DNA of 64,000 bases from a virus (IMGVR_UViG_3300020131_000101:1091-65090); one strand, 5' to 3'. Positions 308 to 47,583 are shown, numbered from the stretch's first letter. Numbers and translations are program-made. The notes: generated by a model from the letters alone, not told the origin.

Positions 308-946
308 ATGTGTGCCAACTACCGCCCCTCTACCCGCGAGCTGCTGCAGCAGCATTTCCAGGTCGCGCCGCCGGATCCTGAGTTCAAGGACGAAGCTTTC
401 CCGGGATACATGGCGCCGTTCATCCGGCCGCCGAGCGCTGATTCCGTACTAGGCGATCGAGCATGCACGCTCGGTATGTTCGGCATGGTCCCGCACTGGG
501 CCGATACGAAGCTCGCGCGGCAGACCTACAACGCCCGCACCGAGACGGTCGCGAGCAAGCCCAGCTTCCGCAACGCATGGAAGCGCCGGCAGTTCTGCAT
601 CATCCCGTTGGTTTCTTTTTATGAGCCGAACTATGAATCCGGCAAAGCTGTGCGCTGGGAGATCGCAGACGCTGACGGCGGGCCGCTGGGAATCGCGGGA
701 ATCTGGGACCACAAGCAGGAAGGGCCGAACGGCCTCCCCCTCCTATCATTCTCGATGTTGACCATCAACGCCGACGGCCATCCGCTGATGCAGCGCTTCC
801 ACAAGCCGGACGACGAGAAACGCATGCTGGTCATTCTCCGACCGGATCAGTATGACGAATGGCTGCATGTGCCGGTCAATGACGCGCCGAACTTCTTCGA
901 ACGCTATCCAGCTGAACGCTTGGTGGCAAATCCCGCGCCACGGTGA
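308..946 (+). CDS. SOS response-associated peptidase (SRAP/YedK/HMCES family)
   Basis: N-terminal MC, YNARTET, CIIP..FYE, AGIW, LT..A, H..RM motifs. Confidence 0.93.
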   Translation: MCANYRPSTRELLQQHFQVAPPDPEFKDEAFPGYMAPFIRPPSADSVLGDRACTLGMFGMVPHWADTKLARQTYNARTETVASKPSFRNAWKRRQFCIIPLVSFYEPNYESGKAVRWEIADADGGPLGIAGIWDHKQEGPNGLPLLSFSMLTINADGHPLMQRFHKPDDEKRMLVILRPDQYDEWLHVPVNDAPNFFERYPAERLVANPAPR

Positions 947-1513: not shown

Positions 1514-2764
1514 ATGAGTGAGAAAAAATCTACCGGTCACCAAAATCATGACGAGGCCATGGAGAGGGACAGAAAGATTGACCAAGGGACGGACGAGAGA
1601 GTGGCCGCGGGGATCCGGAATGTTCACGACATTGTGGCCGAGTACCACAAAGCCAACGAAAGCAGCATGAGCATGCGGAATATCCTGCCGCTGGTTAGAG
1701 AACACGTCGATGGCCCGGTACAGGATTGGCTCGCAAAGTACAAGTCAGAGCCGTTTTCATTTTCGACAATGCTGGCAACTGAAGGGCTGCGAGGTTCACT
1801 GTGTTTCGACCGGCTCTGCGACGCGATGGAAGCGCAGTATGGGTGGGATTTCAATCTGATGTTCCCCGACTTGGGGCCAACAAGCTCCTCGCTCGTCTAC
1901 TTCTCATTCTTCTGCTGCGCCCATTACGGGGACACCGAGGAAGTTGTGATGATTTGCACCGTCCGAGAGGAAGGAAAACCTCGTAGCACTTCGATCGACA
2001 CCAGGCGCACAAAACGACGGAACGCCCCCAAGAAGAAGGCCAAGGCAATGCTGCACAGTGAGGTCGATTTTCTAGAAAACGGCCCAGGTGATCGCTACTG
2101 CCAGCTGTGCCACCGATTTACCGAACAAGCCGATGAAGTCCTCCGTGTTTTCCAGAACCCGGATGAAATCAAATTAACGACTGCGCGCGCCAAAGAGCTT
2201 TTGAAGAATCCCAAGGTTCGCTTCTATACGCCAGGATTCAGCGATGAATATTGCAAACACCACTCGCCAAAGAAACAGCCAGTGGCTTACAAAAAGGCGT
2301 TGGGACGCCGATCGCTTTATTACGCCACTCGAAAATTTCTGATCCTCGTCCGGCAGGCAAGACGGATAGGCGCTGGGCATATTTCCGTTGTGCGCAAAGC
2401 GTCATTCCTGATCGCGAACGAATGTCCCGACCAGAAACTCATCAAAGAGATCCCATCGATTGTCCGTGGCTGGCGTGATTATGACGACGGCGAAGACGAC
2501 GAAAACTGGCGACATCAAATCTCGTCACATATGGACAAGATCATCGCATCATTTCAGTCGGCGGCGCATCCATTAACTCGGCTTACGGAGTCAATTGCAA
2601 CTGACAGTTTAGGAGAACTGTACAGTCTCGCAAAGCAAATGGACCTGCTTACCGATCTCGAGGAGGCCCTTGGGGCATCAGGCTTTATCTTCGACCCGTA
2701 TGTGGTCTCCCTGAAGAACGGCGGCACGGTTTTTGGCTACCAGCTGAGCAACGAAGGCGACTAA
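1514..2764 (+). CDS. Hypothetical protein with putative Zn-binding motif (CQLC...YCKHH)
   Basis: 416-aa ORF, AAGGA RBS, moron orientation. Confidence 0.75.
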   Translation: MSEKKSTGHQNHDEAMERDRKIDQGTDERVAAGIRNVHDIVAEYHKANESSMSMRNILPLVREHVDGPVQDWLAKYKSEPFSFSTMLATEGLRGSLCFDRLCDAMEAQYGWDFNLMFPDLGPTSSSLVYFSFFCCAHYGDTEEVVMICTVREEGKPRSTSIDTRRTKRRNAPKKKAKAMLHSEVDFLENGPGDRYCQLCHRFTEQADEVLRVFQNPDEIKLTTARAKELLKNPKVRFYTPGFSDEYCKHHSPKKQPVAYKKALGRRSLYYATRKFLILVRQARRIGAGHISVVRKASFLIANECPDQKLIKEIPSIVRGWRDYDDGEDDENWRHQISSHMDKIIASFQSAAHPLTRLTESIATDSLGELYSLAKQMDLLTDLEEALGASGFIFDPYVVSLKNGGTVFGYQLSNEGD

Positions 2765-2780
2765 AACCAGTAATCGACAA

Positions 2781-3194
2781 TCAACAAACTCCAAGGACAA
2801 GCTCTTTACCCAGTGCCCGCAATGCCTCCTGAATCGTGTCGATCTTGGTAGCGTGCCCAAGGTCGATCAGCCGATTCACGTCCTGCGGCCTGGCACCTAG
2901 CCGACGCGCCAGCTCAACCGGCTTCACTTGCTGCGCCAGCATCTCGTTCAGCAAAAGCACCTTGGCCGACATGCTGGCCGGCAGTTCGACATACTGGAAT
3001 TTGCCGCGCATCTTGCTCGGCAACGGCACCGGCCGGCGATCATCAAAATAGAACTCCATCGCCGTTTCCAGCGCGTCCTTGGCCATCTGCAGCGCTTCCT
3101 CTTCAGTCGATCCAGAAGTCAGCGCCTCCGGAATATCCGGGAACGACACGCAAAAGCCGTCGCCGTCACGCTCGATCGTTACAGGGTATCGCAT
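2781..3194 (-). CDS. hicB: HicB family antitoxin with C-terminal HTH
   Basis: YPVTIERDGDGFCVSFPDIPEALTSGSTEEEA signature; HTH C-terminus. Confidence 0.93.
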   Translation of the reverse strand: MRYPVTIERDGDGFCVSFPDIPEALTSGSTEEEALQMAKDALETAMEFYFDDRRPVPLPSKMRGKFQYVELPASMSAKVLLLNEMLAQQVKPVELARRLGARPQDVNRLIDLGHATKIDTIQEALRALGKELVLGVC

Positions 3195-3283
3195 ACGCTT
3201 TTCTCCATCATTGGTTCGAAAATCGAACCACGAGGGCCGTGAAATATCGCGAGTTACCGGAAGCCCCTTTCGGGGCTCCCTCC

Positions 3284-3460
3284 TTACTTGATCCCGAGTT
3301 GTTTCAGAATCCTCTGCCTGAGTCCTTCGCCAATTTCATGGCTTGGGTGCCTCGGCAGGGTGGTCTGTTTGCCTTGGTAGTAGAGCTTCAGGTGCTTGCT
3401 GCCGTCCTTCGTTTCTACCCCTTGAGCCTCCAGCCACCGCCGGAACTCGCTTTGCTTCAC
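3284..3460 (-). CDS. hicA: HicA family toxin (mRNA interferase)
   Basis: GTG start after GGGAGG; KQSEFRRWL..GSKHLKL..LPRHP..EIGEGL..ILKQLG. Confidence 0.92.
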   Translation of the reverse strand: MKQSEFRRWLEAQGVETKDGSKHLKLYYQGKQTTLPRHPSHEIGEGLRQRILKQLGIK

Positions 3461-3491
3461 CGCACCTCCCTTATTCGTTGAACATGGAGAA

Positions 3492-3520
3492 AGTATAAGC
3501 AATTTCGTTTATATACGCAA
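3492..3520 (-). promoter_or_regulatory. Sigma70 promoter of hicAB
   Basis: TTGCGT-17 bp-TATACT on minus strand; imperfect palindrome ATAAGC..GTTTAT in the spacer may be the HicB operator. Confidence 0.7.
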
Positions 3521-3563: not shown

Positions 3564-4382
3564 TTACGCAGCCTGCGCGGCAACCATCCTTGCAAGCACG
3601 TCTGCTGCAGCGTTGTAGCCGTCGTCCAGCAGCCGCTGGCGCAGATCAAGCGGCATGTTCCTGTCCAGGCTCGAAGCGTATCCAGTCTCCACGAATGCCA
3701 CTTTCGCTCCGGCCGCTGCCGCCAGATCGACGTGCGTGTTCTCGTTCGACGCCATCATGAGATCGATCACCCGCGGCACAATATCCAGGAATGAGTACAC
3801 TCCGGGCTGCATCGGCGAGGCCTTGGAAACAAGCTGGATGCCAAGTCGCGGCACTGAATCGATCTCCAGCCGGTCGACCGGGATATTGTTCACCATGCCA
3901 CCATCCATCAGCATGGCGCCGCTGATCTGGATGGGGGAGTACACGAACGGGATCGCGGCGGAGGCACGCGCAGCGAGGGCTACCGACGCGAACGGTGTCG
4001 TCTCCTTGCTGAACTCAAAAGTCACCTGGTTCGCTACGTCGGACGCCATCACCACCAGATCCACATCAAGGTCGGCAAAGGTCTTGCGACCGGTATTCTC
4101 TTCCAGCCACTCCTGAAGCGTGTTGCCGGAGCAGTAGCCGAGATTGGTCATGAGCGCCCACAAGGAGAAGCTGAGCATGTCGGACCAGTCACGCGATAGG
4201 GTCAGCTCGCGCATCTGCTCAAGCGGCATGCCGCAGGCCGCCATCGTGCCGACGATCGAGCCACCGGACGTGCCAGCGTACTGGACCGGCGTGAAACCCG
4301 CATCCCGGATGGCCAGCAGCGCGCCAACATGAGCCGGAAACTTGAACCCCGAACCGCTCAAGGCAATACGGATCGGCTTCAT
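3564..4382 (-). CDS. Patatin-like phospholipase
   Basis: ALSGSGFK oxyanion loop, GTSGG nucleophile elbow, ASAAIP, DGG catalytic Asp; start at MKPIRIAL overlaps the upstream stop (ATGA). Confidence 0.92.
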   Translation of the reverse strand: MKPIRIALSGSGFKFPAHVGALLAIRDAGFTPVQYAGTSGGSIVGTMAACGMPLEQMRELTLSRDWSDMLSFSLWALMTNLGYCSGNTLQEWLEENTGRKTFADLDVDLVVMASDVANQVTFEFSKETTPFASVALAARASAAIPFVYSPIQISGAMLMDGGMVNNIPVDRLEIDSVPRLGIQLVSKASPMQPGVYSFLDIVPRVIDLMMASNENTHVDLAAAAGAKVAFVETGYASSLDRNMPLDLRQRLLDDGYNAAADVLARMVAAQAA

Positions 4383-4567
4383 TTCGCGGCCTCGGTCGGC
4401 TTTTCGACAGAAACCGGCGTGCCGGGCGCGGCGTGCGGCGTGTTGTAGGTCGCAATGACGGACCAGGATACGTTCAGGCCAGCGCAACCGGTCAGCCCGG
4501 CCATCAGCCCAACGAGCACCGTAACCAGCAGGCCGACGCGCGCGCAGTAGAACAAATCGAGCTTCAT
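4379..4567 (-). CDS. Small lipoprotein of the lysis cassette
   Basis: Hydrophobic signal and lipobox LTG-C; 35-aa mature peptide; ATGA overlaps on both sides. Confidence 0.75.
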   Translation of the reverse strand: MKLDLFYCARVGLLVTVLVGLMAGLTGCAGLNVSWSVIATYNTPHAAPGTPVSVEKPTEAAK

Positions 4568-5085
4568 CCAAGAACCTCCCTTGCTTTTTCATGCAGCGCG
4601 ACGCGCTGCTCATAGTGGGTGTATCCGCCGTTGATCAGCTTCGTGATCCGGCGGAAGTTGCCGGCGTCGGCCAGCGCGTTGAGCCCGTGGGAATGCCAGA
4701 ACCAGGCGGCCGACCGGCACGCGTTGCGCGGATCTTCGAGCAGTTCTGGGAAGTGCAACAGCCGGTCATCGCCGAAAAGCGCCATCGAACAGGACAGGTA
4801 GTTCGCCCGGCCCGTGACCTGGATCAGGCCGCGCCCCTTGAAGCGGACACCGTCGCCCTCCTCCGAATTGCCGAGGTCCTTCCGGTTCTCGTAGGCCTCG
4901 CCACTCGCCAGCTCACGCACGTAGAGCAGCTGACCGGATTCGTGGCCAATCTGCGCTAGGAAGGCAGCCTGCCGCGCGGGCGTGTTGATCTCGTACTCGG
5001 CCATTGCTGCGACCAGGTGCGGAAGGAACAGGTCCACGCGCCGCTTTGCCAGCGGCATGATGGCCAGCAGCTGGTCGCCGGTCAT
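4564..5085 (-). CDS. Endolysin, glycoside hydrolase family 19
   Basis: AAFLAQIGHES, FKGRGLIQVTGRANY, SAAWFW, ITKLINGG. Confidence 0.95.
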   Translation of the reverse strand: MTGDQLLAIMPLAKRRVDLFLPHLVAAMAEYEINTPARQAAFLAQIGHESGQLLYVRELASGEAYENRKDLGNSEEGDGVRFKGRGLIQVTGRANYLSCSMALFGDDRLLHFPELLEDPRNACRSAAWFWHSHGLNALADAGNFRRITKLINGGYTHYEQRVALHEKAREVLG

Positions 5086-5348
5086 TGGGCGCCCCGCTTG
5101 TCAGCGCAGACGCGACGGCGGTTTGTGACCACGAACGCGGCAATACCGACATTCAGCACGACATCCGACCAGGTCGGCGTCGGGCTGCCGTAGACGGGCC
5201 CGAGCAGGACCGCGCCCGCACCGGTCACCATCACCACCCACGCGAAGCGGATGCCGTGCTTGGTGCACCTGGACATGTTGTTGATGGCGCCGAACAGACC
5301 AACGCCGAAGATCACCGCCGCCGCGGCGAGATTCACGGCAAGGATCAT
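5082..5348 (-). CDS. Putative holin/antiholin (about 3 TM)
   Basis: 88-aa hydrophobic protein with basic C-terminus, directly upstream of the endolysin. Confidence 0.7.
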   Translation of the reverse strand: MILAVNLAAAAVIFGVGLFGAINNMSRCTKHGIRFAWVVMVTGAGAVLLGPVYGSPTPTWSDVVLNVGIAAFVVTNRRRVCADKRGAQ

Positions 5349-5707
5349 TTGACATCCCCCTGCTTCCGCAGCCAGTTCAGCCCAGCAGGAATGAGCACCT
5401 GAGCTGTGAGACCGAGGCCCGCTGCACAGGCCATACGGACACCACCTCCGGTACCGACGAGCCAAGGGAAGTAATGGACAGCAGCGGCCGCAATCACTGG
5501 GGCAAAAAAGCCTGCCAGGATGGATGAGCTCGCGACCGTCCCGGCAATCTTCAGCGCCGGCATAGACGGCAGATAGGAAAGCGACACGAGACCGCCGAAG
5601 AACCCGGCAAGCAGTGCGTCATAGTGCACACCGAGGATTGACCCGGTTAGCGTGATCGTCCCGGCCGCGATCGTCACGCCGACCGTGGAGCTTGCTGGTT
5701 CAGCCAT
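5345..5707 (-). CDS. Putative holin (3-4 TM)
   Basis: 120-aa hydrophobic protein, first gene of the lysis cassette. Confidence 0.7.
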   Translation of the reverse strand: MAEPASSTVGVTIAAGTITLTGSILGVHYDALLAGFFGGLVSLSYLPSMPALKIAGTVASSSILAGFFAPVIAAAAVHYFPWLVGTGGGVRMACAAGLGLTAQVLIPAGLNWLRKQGDVK

Positions 5708-5735: not shown

Positions 5736-5758
5736 AAAAAAGCCGCCCTTGGGCGGCC
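5736..5758 (-). terminator. Rho-independent terminator between tail and lysis genes
   Basis: GGCCGCCC-AA-GGGCGGCT followed by a T-run. Confidence 0.75.
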
Positions 5759-5778
5759 TGCATGGGGATGGGTTGGCA

Positions 5779-6312
5779 CTACAGCGGCTCTTGCTCCGGC
5801 GCCGGGGCGGCGGCCTCAATCTCGGCCAGAAGCTCTTCCTCAGTCGGGATCGCCCGCTGATGTGCTTTCACGGCATTGAGGATGCCAGCAGCCGTGTTCC
5901 AGACAAGCGAGCGCCAGGCGCGCAGCGCGCGGCCTTCATTCTGGAAGCGAGGAACTGCTGGCTCTTCGGCGTAGCTGATCGCGTGAAGGATCGGGGAAAC
6001 CTCCGGTCGGTTCGGATCTCCGTAGCCGAACAAGCGCGCCACGTCGTCCAGTCGCTTCTGCACTACGCCGTCGTAATGTTTGATCAACTGCTCCTGGGTC
6101 GGCTGCAGCGCTGCATTGTGTTCGTCCATCCGTATCTGACTAAACACCAGTGAACTGCCCTGCCTAACCATCCCGCCAAGCGTGATTTCCGGCAGCGGGC
6201 CGTCCTTACGCTCGTCCCAAAGAACGCGCGACTGGTCAAAGTACCCACCGCCCTCGCCGATCTCTATCACCTCTTGTGTTCCAATCGGTGAGTTGACAAG
6301 TAATTTACTCAT
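5779..6312 (-). CDS. Putative tail fibre assembly/accessory protein
   Basis: Follows the fibre gene with overlap; AISYA..F..EGRAL.AWR..VW C-terminus typical of fibre-associated proteins. Confidence 0.65.
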   Translation of the reverse strand: MSKLLVNSPIGTQEVIEIGEGGGYFDQSRVLWDERKDGPLPEITLGGMVRQGSSLVFSQIRMDEHNAALQPTQEQLIKHYDGVVQKRLDDVARLFGYGDPNRPEVSPILHAISYAEEPAVPRFQNEGRALRAWRSLVWNTAAGILNAVKAHQRAIPTEEELLAEIEAAAPAPEQEPL

Positions 6313-30875: not shown

Positions 30876-31087
30876 GCCCGCCCCTTCCGCTTTCTCAAAT
30901 AGGGCCGGTCATTCACCCACTTCCGCGACTCATCCTTGCCCCAAAAACGACTAGCCTCATTCATTTCGAGATGTAGCCGTGGCATCTTGTCAATAACGAC
31001 AACCTTCCCGAGGCGGACCGATTCCACGATCAGCTCTTCAATCTGGCCGGCAGCCTTGCCATTGATGAAAAGAAGGATCGGCATCAT
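30872..31087 (-). CDS. Hypothetical phage protein
   Basis: Coupled ORF of 71 aa. Confidence 0.5.
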   Translation of the reverse strand: MMPILLFINGKAAGQIEELIVESVRLGKVVVIDKMPRLHLEMNEASRFWGKDESRKWVNDRPYLRKRKGRA

Positions 31088-32784
31088 GCGGCCTCGAACA
31101 TGCTTGGCTGGGCCACCACTTGACCGCTGCGGCGCTTAGACAGGAATTGCTGAGCCAGCGCCTTGATGCGCGAGTCGTCCGAGTGGACGGCCTCGAATAC
31201 GGCGCCAGGGTCAACGATGCCTGATGCCTGAGATGCTTTGATTCCAAGCAAATCCACCATTGGCGGGTCGGAACCGTCCTCGCTGTTCAGGTAGATCGCC
31301 GTTACCTGCTCAGTCTGGCCTTCCCGATCAAGACGGCCGATGACCTGCTCATGAACCTTCGGCGACCAGTCCAGCTCGCCAAACACGACCGTCGAGCACC
31401 GAAACTGCAGACCGTCAAGACCGGCGCCGGAGCGCAGGGACATGATGAAGAGATTTGTCTTCCCTTCAATGAATGCCTGCTTGGAAGCCTCTTTCTGGGT
31501 CGGGCTTTCGCTGCCCGTGTACATCACAGGGTTAAAGTCCGCCAACTCCTTGAGCCAGATCTCGTACACATCGCGGTGCCAGCCCATGAGCAGCAGCGGG
31601 ACGCCGGCCTCGAGCAGGATGCGGACGTATGCAGCGACCGCGCGAGCTTTGCCGACACCGGTTGCGTGGCGCGCCAGCAGATCAAGCTCCCGGGCGGCCT
31701 GGCCGCGTTCGACAAACGATCCGGTGGTTGCCTTGATGGCCAATGCCTGCGCCAGGGCAGCAATGTCCTGCAGCGCCTTCTCGTCGCTTTCCACGATCTC
31801 GACGATCCGGTTGATGGGCGGAACCTGCTGGCCGACCTCGCGCTTGGTGCGCCGGATGAAGGCATGCTGTTCCCGCAGATAGGTGCCGAGCGCCTCCGGA
31901 TCCCTGATGCGGCCATTGTCGTCCGTCCACTCCCGCATGAAGTCTGGATACTCGCCGAGAACGAACCGGTCGATGCATCGCATGATGTTCCAGATCTCGG
32001 TGCCGTAGTTGTAGATCGGGGTTGCGGACAGGCCGAGCCGGAACTCAGCGTTTTCAGCCAGATGGAAGGCAGCATTCCCCTTTCCACTTGCCGAGCCGGT
32101 ACGGAGTTCCTGCACTTCATCGAACGCCACTGCCTTGAACACCCGCTCCTTGAAGAAGTCAACCCAGCCGAGCAACTGGCTGTACTTGAAGATGTACACG
32201 TCCGCATCCGGCAGGTTGTATGGCTTGGTGCCCTTGATCTTATGGGTTCGCAACGTGGTGAACGCTGCGAGTTTCTCCGCCCATTGCCCCTGGAGGTGGG
32301 TCTGCACCACTGCAGCTGCTGGCCGCGCCTCCGAAATAAGGAAGAAACCTGCGGCCGTGTAGGTTTTCCCGAGTCCGAGGTCGTCACCAAGCAGGAGGCC
32401 ACGACGGCGGCGCAGCACCTCAATCGCCTGGCACTGATACGGACGGATCAACTGCCCCTCTCGCAATCCGACGTACGCCGGCGGCTGGTAGTCTGGCTTG
32501 AGGATTCGCTCCATCTCGGCAAGCTGCGCCTCGAACGCAAGATGACCGTTATGCAGGTCGGTCGCGTCCGCATCGGATATGACCATCGGGTACCGCGAAC
32601 AGAACCATGCCAGGTCTGCACAGGTCGCGAAGTCGTTCTGGAACTCGAAGCTGTCGGTCTGGTGCTTCGGGATCCGCGGGAATAGCTGCTTCAGGCGGAT
32701 GGCCACGTGCGGCTCAATGCCGGTCATGACCCAGCGCGCGCGGTCGACGCGAAGTCCCAGCTTTCCATATGTGCGGAAGGACAT
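31084..32784 (-). CDS. SNF2/SF2-family helicase
   Basis: RPYQ, GDDLGLGKT, FDEVQ, LSATP, GAGLDGLQ, QVIGRLDREGQ. Confidence 0.92.
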   Translation of the reverse strand: MSFRTYGKLGLRVDRARWVMTGIEPHVAIRLKQLFPRIPKHQTDSFEFQNDFATCADLAWFCSRYPMVISDADATDLHNGHLAFEAQLAEMERILKPDYQPPAYVGLREGQLIRPYQCQAIEVLRRRRGLLLGDDLGLGKTYTAAGFFLISEARPAAAVVQTHLQGQWAEKLAAFTTLRTHKIKGTKPYNLPDADVYIFKYSQLLGWVDFFKERVFKAVAFDEVQELRTGSASGKGNAAFHLAENAEFRLGLSATPIYNYGTEIWNIMRCIDRFVLGEYPDFMREWTDDNGRIRDPEALGTYLREQHAFIRRTKREVGQQVPPINRIVEIVESDEKALQDIAALAQALAIKATTGSFVERGQAARELDLLARHATGVGKARAVAAYVRILLEAGVPLLLMGWHRDVYEIWLKELADFNPVMYTGSESPTQKEASKQAFIEGKTNLFIMSLRSGAGLDGLQFRCSTVVFGELDWSPKVHEQVIGRLDREGQTEQVTAIYLNSEDGSDPPMVDLLGIKASQASGIVDPGAVFEAVHSDDSRIKALAQQFLSKRRSGQVVAQPSMFEAA

Positions 32785-33155
32785 TACAGCCACCCCTTGC
32801 TTAATGAAGCCACGCTCGCCGGTTTGCCGCCGATGTCGGCCGGCAGATGCATACAAACCGATGTCACCAACACAATCGCCTTGACCGACTCATGCGCGGA
32901 ATACCGCTCAAGCTGTCGATAGATCGCCTTCCGCTGCCCCTTGATCTTCACCTCGACGGCAACACCGCCATCAACAAGGAAGTCCACGATGTCCTTGTCC
33001 GAGAGCCGTGCCTCACGCTCGAACTCAACACCGCCAGCGTCCAGCACCGTCGCAATCTGGACTTGAGTTTGCTTCTCATCAGTGAGTGAAAGCTTGCTCA
33101 CTTCGATCAGATTGGTGACTGCACGAACTGCAGCCTGGATGTCAGCGGCGATCAT
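32784..33155 (-). CDS. PD-(D/E)XK nuclease-like protein
   Basis: E..., FERE, IVDFLV..VAVEVK, QLERY. Confidence 0.75.
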   Translation of the reverse strand: MIAADIQAAVRAVTNLIEVSKLSLTDEKQTQVQIATVLDAGGVEFEREARLSDKDIVDFLVDGGVAVEVKIKGQRKAIYRQLERYSAHESVKAIVLVTSVCMHLPADIGGKPASVASLSKGWL

Positions 33156-38019: not shown

Positions 38020-38909
38020 GCAACAGAAAGAAGGTTGACGCTGTCGTCAGCAGCCTCTTGAACGGCCTGCGCCAGGTTGCGACGCGCGATCTCGAAATAG
38101 CTGCGCTTCAGTTCGGCGCCAACGAATCGCCGGCCCATCTTGATGGCGCAATACCCTTCCGATCCGATGCCGGTGAACGGCGAAAACACGACATCACCCG
38201 GGTTCGTCCAGAGCTCAATCGACCGCTCGATCACGTCGAGCTGCAGCGGGCAGATATGGCGCTCGTCGTCGCCATCGCGTGCGCACATGTACTGCAGCGT
38301 CCTCGACGGATTGATGTCCATCCATACCGGGCTGGCGTACTCCTGCCACTTGTCAACCGGAAAACCTGATTCAGTTTTGGTTACCGGATCCGGATTTGCA
38401 CCGGGCTTGCGGAAAACGACCAGGTAATCAGGGATACCCTGACGGCTCATAGCGCTGTCCTTCTTGAGCTGCTTGTAGAGCAGGCCAAGTGCCTTAGTGC
38501 GCTGCATGGCGGTTACCGGGTCCTTCCAGATGCACACTTCGGAATGGAAGATGAATCCGGCATCTTCGTAGGCCCGGATGATCTCGCCGCGGAAGTCGCG
38601 AATCCCGATATAGCCGTCCTTGACCTTCGATGTCGGCAGGTTCATGCAATGGATGGCGACCAGCCGCCCTGGCTTGTGGATGCGAAACTGTTCAGCGATC
38701 AGGAACCGGTAGTGAGCCCAGAATTCCTCAGAATCCTTGCTATTCCCCATGTCACGGTCGATGTTCGAGTAGACATACAGCGACTCAAAAGGCGGAGAGA
38801 AAACGCTGAAGTCGATCGAGTTTTCCGGAATCGTCCTGGCGACTTCCACGCAGTCGGCGTTGTAGATCGCGAATTGATCAGTCACATCCTGATTCATTAC
38901 GTTGCTCAT
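38016..38909 (-). CDS. DNA amino-methyltransferase (N4-C/N6-A, beta class)
   Basis: FSPPF motif IV; HICP; FSPFTGIGS SAM-binding motif. Confidence 0.92.
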   Translation of the reverse strand: MSNVMNQDVTDQFAIYNADCVEVARTIPENSIDFSVFSPPFESLYVYSNIDRDMGNSKDSEEFWAHYRFLIAEQFRIHKPGRLVAIHCMNLPTSKVKDGYIGIRDFRGEIIRAYEDAGFIFHSEVCIWKDPVTAMQRTKALGLLYKQLKKDSAMSRQGIPDYLVVFRKPGANPDPVTKTESGFPVDKWQEYASPVWMDINPSRTLQYMCARDGDDERHICPLQLDVIERSIELWTNPGDVVFSPFTGIGSEGYCAIKMGRRFVGAELKRSYFEIARRNLAQAVQEAADDSVNLLSVA

Positions 38910-40291
38910 GCAAACTCCACGTTCTTTGCCAGCCAGGCCGGAACTTCCATCGGCATGGTCGCGTTATAGGTTTCTTGATGGCTGGTCGCGCCAGCGATTT
39001 CACGCTTGGTGATTTCGCGCATGTAGGCGACCATCTGCTCCGACATCTCGTCGTGCTGACGCTGCTTCCGAGCGATGTTGTGCATGACGGCTCCCTCGGT
39101 CTCGGCGGCGATGATGTGCACGTCGACCGGCCTCGTCTGTCCGAAGCGATAGCAGCGGCGGACGGCTTGGTAATAGCTCTCGAACGAGTCATCCATGCCG
39201 GCAAATACCATCCGACTGCAGTGCTGCCAGTTCATACCGAAACCAGCAATGCTTGGCTTGGTGACAATGACCCGTGCATCGCCATGGGTGAACGCCATGA
39301 TCCGACGCTCTTTTTCCTCCGGCGGAAGTGAGCCGGTTACCTCGACTGCTCCGGTGATTGCCTTCGCCAGGGACTCGGATTCGTCATTCAGATGGCACCA
39401 GACGATACACGGCTCGTTTTGGGAGTTCGCAAGCTCGGCAGCCAGAGCAACCCGCTCAGCCATGCTGGCGCGCTTCGCCTGACGGCGCTCCGAAAGACTC
39501 TGTGCAGCGGTGGGAATCAGGAAGCCTTCCTGCGCCTCGCTCTTGATCACATGCTCATGCAGATTCAGCGGCGGCAGAACGTAGCGCGACCCGTCAAATC
39601 CAAGGTCGGACGGGTTCCGGACGCAAATCGCCCAGGACGCCATCCATTCCCAGAAACGCTCTTTCGCATGCCCTTTGAGGCGCCACTTCGACGTATCGCC
39701 GCCGTCGTGCGTGAAGAACATGGCCAGCATCTCGGCCTGGCTCATCACGCCAAGGAACTCGGCCTGGTTACCCAGCTCCATGTAATCATTCGGGCTCGGC
39801 GTCGCCGTGCAGGAAAGCCGATACGGCGTGCACTGGAACGCGTCGGTGATCATCTTGCGCGTCCGGCTGTCATGCGCCTTCAGAATGCTGCTTTCGTCGA
39901 GCACGGCGCCAACGAAGCGCGAGGAATCGAAGTGGGCCAGCATTTCATAGTTCGTGATCGTGATGCCGCTTCGGACTTGATCCTGGTTACGGGCATAGTT
40001 GATCTCGATGCCGAACTTCGCAGCCTCCTCAACAGTTTGCTGCGCAACGCACAACGGAGCGCTGATCAGAACGTCACCGCCGGTGTGCTCATGCACCTTC
40101 TGCGCCCAAGTCGTCTGCATGATGGTCTTACCAAGGCCGGTATCGCCGAAAATCGCCGCACGACCGCGCTTCAGCGCCCACCTGTCTATGGCAGCCTGGA
40201 AGTCGAAGAGATGGCCTCCAAGGTCGCTGCAGTCGAACCCAGTCGGAATCTCCGCCGTTTTTTTCGTCCTGATGAAATCCACGTAATTCAT
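38906..40291 (-). CDS. SNF2/SF2-family helicase
   Basis: FDFQ, DTGLGKT, LDESS, CTATPSPN, GFGMNWQ, QAVRRCYRFGQ. Confidence 0.92.
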   Translation of the reverse strand: MNYVDFIRTKKTAEIPTGFDCSDLGGHLFDFQAAIDRWALKRGRAAIFGDTGLGKTIMQTTWAQKVHEHTGGDVLISAPLCVAQQTVEEAAKFGIEINYARNQDQVRSGITITNYEMLAHFDSSRFVGAVLDESSILKAHDSRTRKMITDAFQCTPYRLSCTATPSPNDYMELGNQAEFLGVMSQAEMLAMFFTHDGGDTSKWRLKGHAKERFWEWMASWAICVRNPSDLGFDGSRYVLPPLNLHEHVIKSEAQEGFLIPTAAQSLSERRQAKRASMAERVALAAELANSQNEPCIVWCHLNDESESLAKAITGAVEVTGSLPPEEKERRIMAFTHGDARVIVTKPSIAGFGMNWQHCSRMVFAGMDDSFESYYQAVRRCYRFGQTRPVDVHIIAAETEGAVMHNIARKQRQHDEMSEQMVAYMREITKREIAGATSHQETYNATMPMEVPAWLAKNVEFA

Positions 40292-40497
40292 TTTGTCTCT
40301 GTCGGGTTTCTTTTTGTCGCCTTCGGAGTCGTTATCCCCCGGCGCATGCACGTCAAGCAGTAGTCGATACCATCCTTGAACTGGCCGAGGCTGCGGCGGA
40401 TCGAACAACCGATACAGCGCTTCATCGCGTGGTTCAGATAGAGCTGCTTTTCCGTAGACGCCCGGTAGGACTCCGTCGACGCTGGATTAACGCTCAT
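40288..40497 (-). CDS. Small Zn-finger protein
   Basis: CIGC...CLTC. Confidence 0.55.
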   Translation of the reverse strand: MSVNPASTESYRASTEKQLYLNHAMKRCIGCSIRRSLGQFKDGIDYCLTCMRRGITTPKATKRNPTETK

Positions 40498-47157: not shown

Positions 47158-47232
47158 CTACAACTTTTTCACCCCTTATTACAACTTTTACTTGCAATAC
47201 AGAATCTGCTGTTGTAACCTGTAGTTGTAATT
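47158..47232. promoter_or_regulatory. OL/pL operator region
   Basis: TACAAC/GTTGTA half-sites; GTTGTAACCTGTAGTTGTAAT closely mirrors the OR sequence ATTACAACTGTAGGTTACAAC. Confidence 0.75.
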
Positions 47233-47280
47233 AATGCCGAGCAGCATGCATTCAGTTGAGCAACTTGATCGGGGGGTGGG

Positions 47281-47583
47281 ATGAAAGGGAAACATGCAGC
47301 AACGCCGTGGCACTGCAAGCAATTGGTAGGCGTGGTTGAACGCGGCTTTGCAATCTTCCACACCAAGGAAAAGGACACTACCAAGACGACGCATCGCATT
47401 GACGATAACGGCGAGTTTTCCAAGGAAGATGCTGAATTCATCGTCCGCGCCTGCAATGCTCACGATGATCTGGTGAAGGCGTTGCGGGAATATGTGGAGC
47501 GGCATGAGGCGGAGTGTGATCCGTCCGGCTTGCCTGAATACGATCAGGCTCGCTCCGCCCTCGCCAAAGCAGGTGCCGCATGA
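47281..47583 (+). CDS. Early phage protein
   Basis: TPW...DAEFIVRACNAHDDLV.AL..AR.AL.KA. Confidence 0.75.
   Translation: MKGKHAATPWHCKQLVGVVERGFAIFHTKEKDTTKTTHRIDDNGEFSKEDAEFIVRACNAHDDLVKALREYVERHEAECDPSGLPEYDQARSALAKAGAA

Follow-up and report, generated by a model that had tools for sequence, protein, structure and literature searches.

How phages without spanins find a route through the outer membrane of their hosts is an open question. The spanins Rz and Rz1 of phage lambda are thought to fuse the two membranes of the host, and to our knowledge the disruptin is the only alternative to spanins that has been shown. Colicin lysis proteins, lipoproteins with a mature part of about 30 residues, make the outer membrane leaky together with outer-membrane phospholipase A (OMPLA), a beta-barrel protein of the host. 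The mycobacteriophage protein LysB has a cutinase-like alpha/beta hydrolase fold, and we know of no lipoprotein partner for it. Here we describe the lysis cassette of a prophage in a virus sequence of 64,000 nucleotides (IMGVR_UViG_3300020131_000101:1091-65090; this whole stretch of DNA is referred to as the window), in which a predicted lipoprotein of 62 aa, Lpp62, and a patatin-like phospholipase are encoded behind the endolysin.

According to the accessible parts of two publications, LysB is a lipolytic enzyme of the mycobacteriophage lysis cassette that acts on the outer lipid barrier after the endolysin (PMC5707550, PMC8309991). A patatin-based lytic cassette has been proposed, without a test, for phage WO of Wolbachia, where the available text places the patatin beside a holin-like gene and near the tail module, with a phospholipase-D-family gene added in some variants (PMC9203015). 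According to the same source, as far as accessible, this patatin presumably stands in for an endolysin in a host where peptidoglycan is not detectable, and an ankyrin protein is its partner (PMC9203015). Regarding alternatives to Rz/Rz1, the accessible part of a further study names the disruptin gp28 of phage phiKT and estimates that about 15% of the phages of Gram-negative hosts lack recognisable spanins (bioRxiv 10.1101/515445). Our literature search for patatin together with spanin, or with endolysin and holin, returned the phage WO papers only, and the search for phospholipases or lipases in lysis cassettes returned nothing on lysis by a lipase in phages of Gram-negative bacteria.

What is new here is a variant of the lysis cassette in which a putative module of lipoprotein and lipolytic enzyme stands where spanins are usually encoded. 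The cassette of the window is the minimal member of a hitherto undescribed kind in phages of Proteobacteria, the named records being all Burkholderiales; in this kind the endolysin gene is followed by genes for one or more predicted small lipoproteins and for a lipolytic enzyme without recognisable signal, instead of Rz/Rz1. With moderate confidence, and judging from gene content and protein features, we propose that the module performs the outer-membrane step of lysis. More tentatively, it may represent a fourth outer-membrane route beside spanins, disruptins and LysB, in which a latent cytoplasmic lipolytic enzyme would be freed by the holin, enzyme and lipoprotein would be exchangeable, and the module would replace Rz/Rz1 in many Burkholderiales phages, cultured ones included. 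The features of the locus are as follows.

5740-5759, minus strand: terminator-like GC-rich hairpin with a T run (8 pairs, 6 of them G-C; pattern match only)
5345-5707, minus strand: holin-like membrane protein of 120 aa, first gene of the cassette (weak family matches, hydrophobic segments)
5082-5348, minus strand: membrane protein of 88 aa, ATG at 5348, holin or antiholin candidate (two to three hydrophobic segments)
4564-5085, minus strand: GH19-type endolysin of 173 aa, predicted to be soluble (phrog_181, E 3.9e-62)
4379-4567, minus strand: Lpp62, predicted lipoprotein of 62 aa (lipobox LTGC, Cys28)
3564-4382, minus strand: patatin-like phospholipase of 272 aa, ATG at 4382, last gene of the late operon (PF01734, E 1.7e-30)

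Direct support for the proposed module comes from its apparent co-translation with the lysis genes, its position in the spanin slot and the conserved catalytic residues of the enzyme. Reading of the open reading frames (ORFs) of the window confirmed five consecutive minus-strand ORFs from 3564 to 5707, joined at all four junctions by 4-nt stop/start overlaps with the sequence ATGA (5348-5345, 5085-5082, 4567-4564 and 4382-4379), as described in an earlier, model-generated note on this DNA (the original prediction). All five ORFs are intact and preceded by a ribosome-binding motif, which in the case of the Lpp62 gene is GGGAGG located 8 nt upstream. The original prediction had also seen in the patatin a translationally coupled member of the cassette, at its end, rather than a free moron. 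This view is borne out by the overlaps and by the GC content at third codon positions, which is 0.77 in the patatin gene and thus similar to that of the lysis genes (0.66-0.84) and the head genes (0.74-0.76), the hicAB genes further downstream being lower (0.63-0.70). Phage operons often contain such gene overlaps; that the layout returns in unrelated phages, however, exceeds what chance would produce.

The patatin matches PF01734 with 107.1 bits (cut-off 27.7) and contains the N-terminal glycine-rich oxyanion motif with a basic residue (SGSGFKF, residues 9-15), the nucleophile motif GTSGG (Ser39) and the aspartate motif DGG (Asp160). Its catalytic motifs, said earlier to be kept in the window, are kept throughout the clade: S9, G10, G12, S39 and D160-G162 are invariant in 66 sequences, and S11, F13, G37, T38 and G40 are conserved in at least 90% of them. 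In an AlphaFold2 model (predicted local distance difference test score, pLDDT, 92.4; predicted template modelling score 0.90) the nearest solved structure is the passenger domain of PlpD (profile E 1.6e-33; Foldseek against 5fya E 4.7e-17, template modelling score 0.71-0.77), followed by lipases of the cyclic-oligonucleotide-based antiphage signalling system (CBASS). Fold and catalytic motifs fit a patatin-like phospholipase, and hydrolysis of phospholipids is predicted. No PHROG family was detected for the protein, and a search of 50,697 phage records returned only two distant matches (30% identity). Membership in CBASS or another known defence system was considered and rejected, given that the PADLOC phospholipase model scored only 36 bits and that no cyclase gene is located nearby; none of the six neighbouring window proteins tested matched a defence model, the neighbours being the lysis genes and hicAB.

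Lpp62 is predicted to possess a signal peptide, the lipobox LTGC and a lipidated Cys28, which leaves 35 mature residues starting with Cys-Ala-Gly. Neither a second hydrophobic stretch nor a C-terminal membrane segment follows Cys28. These properties can be read from the sequence itself; the LTGC motif, the mature length and the missing C-terminal membrane segment were already part of the original description. Five homologues (62-73% identity) were found among 5.8 billion proteins; the residues behind the lipidated cysteine are almost invariant in them, while the signal peptides vary. We regard this conservation of the mature core beside a drifting signal peptide, together with the invariant catalytic residues of the patatin, as signs of selection. 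Lpp62 could not be assigned to any Pfam (E up to 0.01), PHROG or PADLOC family, and scans of viral contigs with Lpp62 alone and with the Lpp62 alignment gave no matches.

As a small lipoprotein Lpp62 occupies the place of an outer-membrane spanin (o-spanin), without the surrounding gene of an inner-membrane spanin (i-spanin) and without a match to the Rz1-type PHROGs. The layout of a unimolecular spanin was not found either, as the lipobox is present and the C-terminal membrane segment is absent. Since the mature part contains two Lys and two Glu it is not cationic, which, together with the predicted lipid anchor, separates it from disruptins as small cationic amphipathic peptides. Co-folding of the patatin (66-row alignment) with residues 28-62 of Lpp62 (6-row alignment) resulted in a score of 0.00 in both runs, which were made without controls and therefore argue neither for nor against binding.

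The claim that the cassette contains no recognisable spanin was supported by lipobox, ORF-architecture and profile searches, and a spanin pair elsewhere in the prophage was likewise not found within the 64-kb window. A six-frame lipobox scan of all 64 kb detected only the Lpp62 gene and one implausible ORF at 47169-47399, and on neither strand was there an ORF combining an N-terminal membrane helix and a long charged tail with a lipoprotein partner. The profiles phrog_2466 and phrog_312 had no match in the whole genome (73.7% complete). PF10721 had no match there nor in any of 14 control genomes, so that this blank carries no weight.

Relatives of the window's endolysin are encoded in four of 43 genomes of the genus, the window's own included. 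Three distinct cassettes were identified in this way (G034 in three identical copies, G030 and G028), in which the genes for a holin, a protein with two membrane helices and a GH19 endolysin are followed by an Rz-like gene in which a lipoprotein gene is embedded. Both kinds of gene match "Rz-like spanin" PHROGs and the Pfam families Phage_lysis or DUF2514, and the embedded lipoproteins, unlike Lpp62, match Rz1-type PHROGs. No patatin gene was found in these three cassettes. When viral contigs were scanned with the window's endolysin, without regard to the genes downstream, 28 loci were obtained, 24 of which extend at least 497 nt beyond the endolysin. In 17 of the 24 an Rz-like ORF contains or overlaps a lipoprotein ORF, in two the Rz-like ORF stands alone, and five have neither; the 17 spanin-type pairs start at or near the endolysin stop codon, and with many close kin among them they represent roughly four to five lineages. 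An ORF with patatin motifs was found in none of the 28 loci. Judged by these gene orders, the slot behind the window's endolysin is the spanin slot. Homologous cassettes carry spanins instead of the lipoprotein-patatin pair and not randomly beside it, which is in line with the original prediction.

Further direct support for the module is provided by the linkage of predicted lipoprotein and endolysin genes to the patatin gene, the lack of co-occurrence with canonical spanins and the apparent replacement of the patatin by another lipase. For the survey of patatin loci, relatives were collected from viral contigs (15 loci with the single protein, 64 with the alignment), from species genomes (4 close loci of 12, all Burkholderiales) and from metagenomes (the best 80 of 478). 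Among the metagenome rows we kept L037-L056, 20 rows at 35% identity or more, and left out a 101-residue piece (L057) and ordinary cellular-looking patatins with at most 35% identity (L058-L116); among the viral rows 15 repeats of contigs from the single-protein scan and two rows at 26% identity were left out. This resulted in 87 loci including the window, in 72 after removal of 15 that were identical over the first 150 residues, and in 70 after exclusion of the broken loci L019 and L047.

In 46 of the 70 loci an ORF with a lipobox ends at most 15 nt from the patatin start, in 25 with the same 4-nt overlap, and in 56 such an ORF lies within 1 kb of the patatin; these counts are lower bounds, as the filter missed some visible genes of the lip6 type. 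Where at least 3 kb of upstream sequence were available, an endolysin gene was detected on the same strand within 3.3 kb upstream of the patatin in 52 of 62 loci (GH19 38, GH108 5, GH24 4, a second GH24-like cluster 2, GH104 2, M15 1). The typical order is endolysin, often an HNH gene, tm4, LipA, LipB and patatin, with tm4 being a small protein with two membrane helices and a proline-rich tail, LipA a protein of about 100 aa with a CC motif and LipB a protein of about 150 aa. For tm4, LipA, LipA9, lip6, p17, c63, LipB and the long LipA-like forms, searches against PHROG and Pfam gave only matches below threshold or at the level of the signal peptide. On a quick tree of the patatins the endolysin type switches at least eight times, and sister patatins stand behind different endolysins (e.g. 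GH19 in the window and GH24 in L016), which suggests that the module is reshuffled among lysis cassettes as lysis genes are.

A canonical Rz/Rz1 pair was found in none of the 70 patatin-clade loci. The detector for spanin pairs had been loosened after its first version recovered one of three same-genus control pairs; it now recovers three of four known pairs, missing that of L019, and flags one of the 72 patatin loci, where the match consists of the module's own tm4 and LipB. In addition, PF03245 had no match in the 44 viral records with a patatin, among them 27 with a completeness of at least 90%. The sole Rz/Rz1 pair beside a patatin (L019, 1624-2940) accompanies a fragment that lacks the N-terminal half and the catalytic serine and is identical to the C-terminal half of the L016 gene from the same metagenome-assembled genome, L019 being either a recombinant or an assembly join. 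The neighbourhood survey proposed with the original prediction thus linked the patatin clade to endolysin and lipoprotein genes and revealed no co-occurrence with Rz/Rz1.

The model of LipB is a four-helix bundle (pLDDT 73.8) without a significant neighbour in the PDB (best E 0.22), and a likeness to lipase-specific foldases was not supported by any result. Besides the lipidated cysteine, two cysteines of LipB are invariant in 38 sequences (alignment positions C21, C44 and C75), and this pair would fit a disulfide and hence a periplasmic location. In 14 patatin loci (L001, L016, L018, L040, L044-L046, L050, L054, L130, L138, L145, L150 and L161) an HNH-endonuclease-like gene lies in the cassette behind the endolysin and ahead of the small membrane protein, an unusual position that nevertheless recurs. 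In L055 (4408-5004) and also in L129 an ORF with an H-x-K motif, by eye similar to phospholipase D (PLD) or nucleases, overlaps the patatin start by 4 nt.

A LipB-family lipoprotein is also encoded in cultured phages, there in front of a lipase of a different fold. LipB gave a weak match in Shewanella phage vB_Sb_QDWS, where the next gene, again with a 4-nt overlap, is predicted to encode a class-3 lipase (PF01764, 53 bits) and is the last late gene before the integrase. Class-3 lipases were also found in Burkholderia phage BgManors32 and in the Ralstonia phages Raharianne, Hyacinthe and Albius, and the succession of a LipB-family gene and a lipase gene with 4-nt overlap is common to BgManors32, Raharianne and vB_Sb_QDWS. 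The first two share the gene order of the patatin loci: BgManors32 encodes a holin-like protein (66% to L139), a GH19 endolysin (92% to L156), an HNH protein, a small membrane protein, LipB (51% to L131) and the lipase, Raharianne a hypothetical protein, a GH24-type endolysin, an HNH protein, a 63-aa protein, LipB (about 39% to L146) and the lipase. In both phages the HNH gene is annotated as HNH endonuclease (L209, 2468-3112, and L210, 2746-3315, respectively). In the first 50 kb of BgManors32 none of the 72 listed features is annotated as spanin, and the pair detector found none. The presence of two unrelated lipolytic folds behind one lipoprotein family argues that lipid hydrolysis is the selected activity.

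The accessible part of the literature on Raharianne's description contains no mention of a lipase or of spanins, and no discussion of BgManors32 was found in the literature. The records of vB_Sb_QDWS (OK094664.1) and of "Hujiaoplasma phage zrk29-1" (OP650936.1) both comprise 47,902 bp and gave identical matches, so their stated hosts may not both be right; the lysis genes of both records resemble those of Burkholderiales phages.

As follows from the four ATGA overlaps, late transcription yields the five proteins together. If the module acts in lysis as proposed, endolysin and patatin would presumably stay cytoplasmic up to the moment when the inner membrane is opened by the holin. The endolysin would then cut the wall, and the patatin may split inner-leaflet phospholipids of the outer membrane to lysolipids and fatty acids, thereby removing the last barrier. 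Speculatively, the lipoprotein might place the enzyme at the outer membrane or switch it on there, which would account for the harmlessness of the enzyme before the holin fires. Release through holin lesions and recruitment or activation by a lipoprotein had been suggested with the original prediction, whose interpretation is supported in part, namely for the coupling, the missing spanin and the linkage.

Several observations weigh against this proposal. The patatin has no signal peptide or other export signal, and why a cytoplasmic phospholipase should be harmless until lysis is unexplained. The share of phages without recognisable spanins cited above also means that their absence is not exceptional. 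The proteins tm4, LipA and LipB, which most relatives encode and the window lacks, may be the actual outer-membrane agents. In L007, L017, L037 and L130 a long hydrophobic stretch forms the C-terminus of the lipoprotein adjacent to the patatin; with this layout of a unimolecular spanin, not all patatin phages are necessarily free of spanins. The patatin's immediate upstream neighbours come from several families without detectable kinship, a poor fit to one conserved binding partner. (A kinship of LipB with the non-lipoprotein p17-like proteins, suspected by eye, was rejected with an hhalign probability of 0.2.) No recognised endolysin is encoded upstream in 10 of the 62 loci, and in L011-L013 the patatin lies among unrelated genes. 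Finally, the spanin detector is heuristic, missed one of four known pairs and is blind to spanin types not yet known, and the kinship of many loci means that the counts overstate their independence. As a separate observation, the many small genes which surround the patatin outside a lysis cassette in L011-L013 and L015 all start with MKIEA(A/T).

The alternative that survives best, although we consider it unlikely, is that the lipoprotein itself is the outer-membrane agent, be it as an orphan o-spanin, a unimolecular spanin or a protein similar to colicin lysis proteins. The patatin (with tm4, LipA or LipB as agent in the relatives) would then be a helper only that speeds lysis, clears membrane debris to which the progeny would otherwise stick, or contributes to the collapse of the inner membrane. 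Lpp62 resembles small lysis lipoproteins in size and lipobox, and its language-model neighbours include the clusters of the colicin E1 lysis protein (0.86) and Rz1 (0.84), both below the bar of 0.9 and therefore leads only. Moreover, in the four loci named above a layout like that of unimolecular spanins is found beside the patatin, and tm4 and LipA together are reminiscent of a lipoprotein of the outer membrane with its partner in the inner membrane. However, Lpp62 matches neither a spanin family nor the profile of PF02402 (Lysis_col), and it lacks both the C-terminal membrane segment and an i-spanin partner. Within the module, furthermore, the enzyme stays constant, whereas its partner proteins come from changing families. 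It is swapped for another lipolytic fold rather than lost, which argues for lipid hydrolysis itself as the selected function.

A second alternative, slightly less probable again, depends on the position of the pair in the prophage. The region is the lysis operon that closes the late genes of an apparently intact temperate siphovirus-type prophage, which is encoded on one strand and includes a CI-like repressor, helicases, the large terminase, portal, major head protein, tape measure and tail fibre; the genes for terminase, portal, head, tape measure and repressor are intact. Downstream of the patatin, behind a 61-nt AT-rich spacer, follow the genes of the HicA toxin (PF07927) and the HicB antitoxin (PF15919, phrog_497) at 2781-3502 on the minus strand. 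A promoter-like sequence, TTGCGT-17-TATACT, was read by eye in this spacer, and the promoter scan gave no flag. A 416-aa ORF without Pfam, PHROG or PADLOC family (1514-2764, plus strand) lies between hicB and a 212-aa ORF (308-946, plus strand), the start of which resembles what we take to be an SOS-response-associated peptidase. The prophage probably ends in the stretch of these two ORFs (308-2764).

The pair could hence be late-expressed cargo, either a factor released by lysis against eukaryotic grazers or competitors, or a module for exclusion or abortive infection. Shiga toxin genes, which adjoin lysis genes, offer a parallel for cargo released in this way. As in many proviruses, the patatin of the window comes last before the prophage end, a usual place of morons, and hicAB follows directly. 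The nearest solved relatives of the patatin are secreted or injected lipases (PlpD, VipD, ExoU) and CBASS effectors, and the gene is rare, being present in none of 60 genomes of relatives and in two of 401 genomes of the order, the window's own among them. Nevertheless, the patatin gene has no promoter or gap of its own, is tied to holin and endolysin genes by the four overlaps and matches the late genes in composition; its weak PADLOC match is not accompanied by a cyclase or another defence partner. Cargo would furthermore not be expected to exclude Rz/Rz1, nor to have a lipoprotein gene remain next to it whichever of six endolysin kinds is present.

It seems very improbable that the pair follows the logic of effector and immunity protein, the lipoprotein inhibiting the phospholipase in the periplasm, e.g. 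to delay or limit its action. Type VI lipase effectors with periplasmic lipoprotein immunity proteins provide the model for such a reading; the lipoprotein gene does abut the phospholipase gene, and the fold neighbours of LipB, none of them significant, include enzyme inhibitors and an immunity protein. However, it is hard to see what a phage about to lyse its host would win by inactivating a lipase of its own, type VI genes were not found nearby, and the pair is located in a late lysis operon. Equally improbable is a decaying cassette, in which foreign DNA with lipoprotein and patatin genes replaced the spanins and left a pair without function and poor or no lysis, because, notwithstanding the incomplete assembly of the genome and the breakage of such cassettes by recombination seen in L019, the five ORFs and the structural and repressor genes are intact and the same layout is seen again in about 70 loci, some of them in proviruses classed as complete, and, with the lipase, in plaque-forming phages.

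The two genes upstream of the endolysin had both been called holin-like in the original prediction; by family matches the first is only weakly so, and the second is a candidate. The 5345-5707 protein has weak matches to holins (Phage_holin_8 16.6 bits, cut-off 26.4; phrog_198 E 2.3e-4). Its hydrophobic segments and its position in the cassette, ahead of an endolysin without signal peptide, fit a holin, and homologues start the cassettes of G034 and L016 and stand upstream in G028. The 88-aa protein (5082-5348) has no Pfam, PHROG or PADLOC family and is a candidate by position and hydrophobicity. Its homologues occupy the same position in L016 and in G034; since the latter cassette also encodes Rz/Rz1, the 88-aa protein is not a spanin substitute. 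The assignment of the endolysin to GH19 was upheld by the PHROG match, the Pfam profile Glyco_hydro_19 staying just under its cut-off (24.8 bits, E 2.2e-5, 0.7 below 25.5). No hydrophobic segment, signal or signal-anchor-release segment was detected in this protein (4564-5085), relatives of which were found at 50-75% identity.

The hairpin at 5740-5759 separates the first lysis gene from a gene of the tail-fibre region (5779-6312), and transcription of the cassette would thus proceed by read-through or anti-termination; three terminator-like sites in the region compare with 2.9 expected from shuffled sequences, which is no excess. The early region of the prophage contains two separate helicase genes of phrog_62 (31084-32856 and 38906-40408, minus strand). 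The stretch of the window was present in two DNA runs of soil metagenomes, one of them probably its source, and no RNA run was among the matches listed.

The survey turns a single odd cassette into a recurring module of lipoprotein and lipolytic enzyme in the spanin slot, and its class-3 lipase version in plaque-forming phages of Burkholderia and Ralstonia opens the hypothesis to ordinary phage genetics. Four protein families without annotation (tm4, LipA, LipB and Lpp62) are now flagged as lysis-associated. If the proposed function holds true, an enzymatic outer-membrane step would join the paradigm of Gram-negative lysis in parallel to mycobacteriophage LysB, and the patatin cassette proposed for phage WO would be backed indirectly. 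Engineered lysis systems and endolysin-based antibacterials could furthermore draw on lipases attacking the outer membrane from the inside as candidates.

Compared with Rz/Rz1 of lambda, the pair of the window has the same position behind the endolysin and lies in the same operon, and the o-spanin is likewise a small lipoprotein of the outer membrane; the window differs in lacking an inner-membrane coiled-coil partner and any match to spanin families, and in encoding an enzyme instead. The disruptin gp28 of phiKT and the unimolecular spanin gp11 of T1 are the known outer-membrane alternatives to Rz/Rz1. In contrast to these, Lpp62 is neither cationic nor equipped with a C-terminal membrane segment, and neither of the two known systems uses an enzyme.

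The combination of a small lipoprotein and a phospholipase is shared with colicin lysis proteins and OMPLA. There, however, the lipase is the host's own OMPLA, here it is a soluble patatin encoded by the phage, and Lpp62 has no Lysis_col match. Among 42 other genomes of the genus 22 encode OMPLA (PF02253), whereas the 73.7%-complete genome of the window gave no match, a result that is uninformative on OMPLA as a target of Lpp62. With PlpD, ExoU, VipD and CapV/CapE the patatin shares its fold and the Ser-Asp dyad, but it consists of the bare catalytic domain of 272 aa, without autotransporter, type III context or cyclase neighbour. ExoU and CapV, which become active only once a cofactor has bound, set a precedent for a phospholipase that is switched on.

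Phage WO, compared here by description, also has a patatin-like phospholipase beside a holin-like gene, and the PLD-like ORF seen by eye in L055 recalls its PLD gene. The window's patatin differs in standing beside a normal endolysin, in the spanin slot and with a lipoprotein partner. LysB, finally, is likewise a lipolytic enzyme of a lysis cassette that deals with an outer lipid barrier, but it differs from the patatin in fold, in substrate (mycolyl-arabinogalactan, the mycomembrane linkage) and in the host envelope; in fold class LysB has nearer counterparts in the BgManors32 and Raharianne class-3 lipases than in the patatin.

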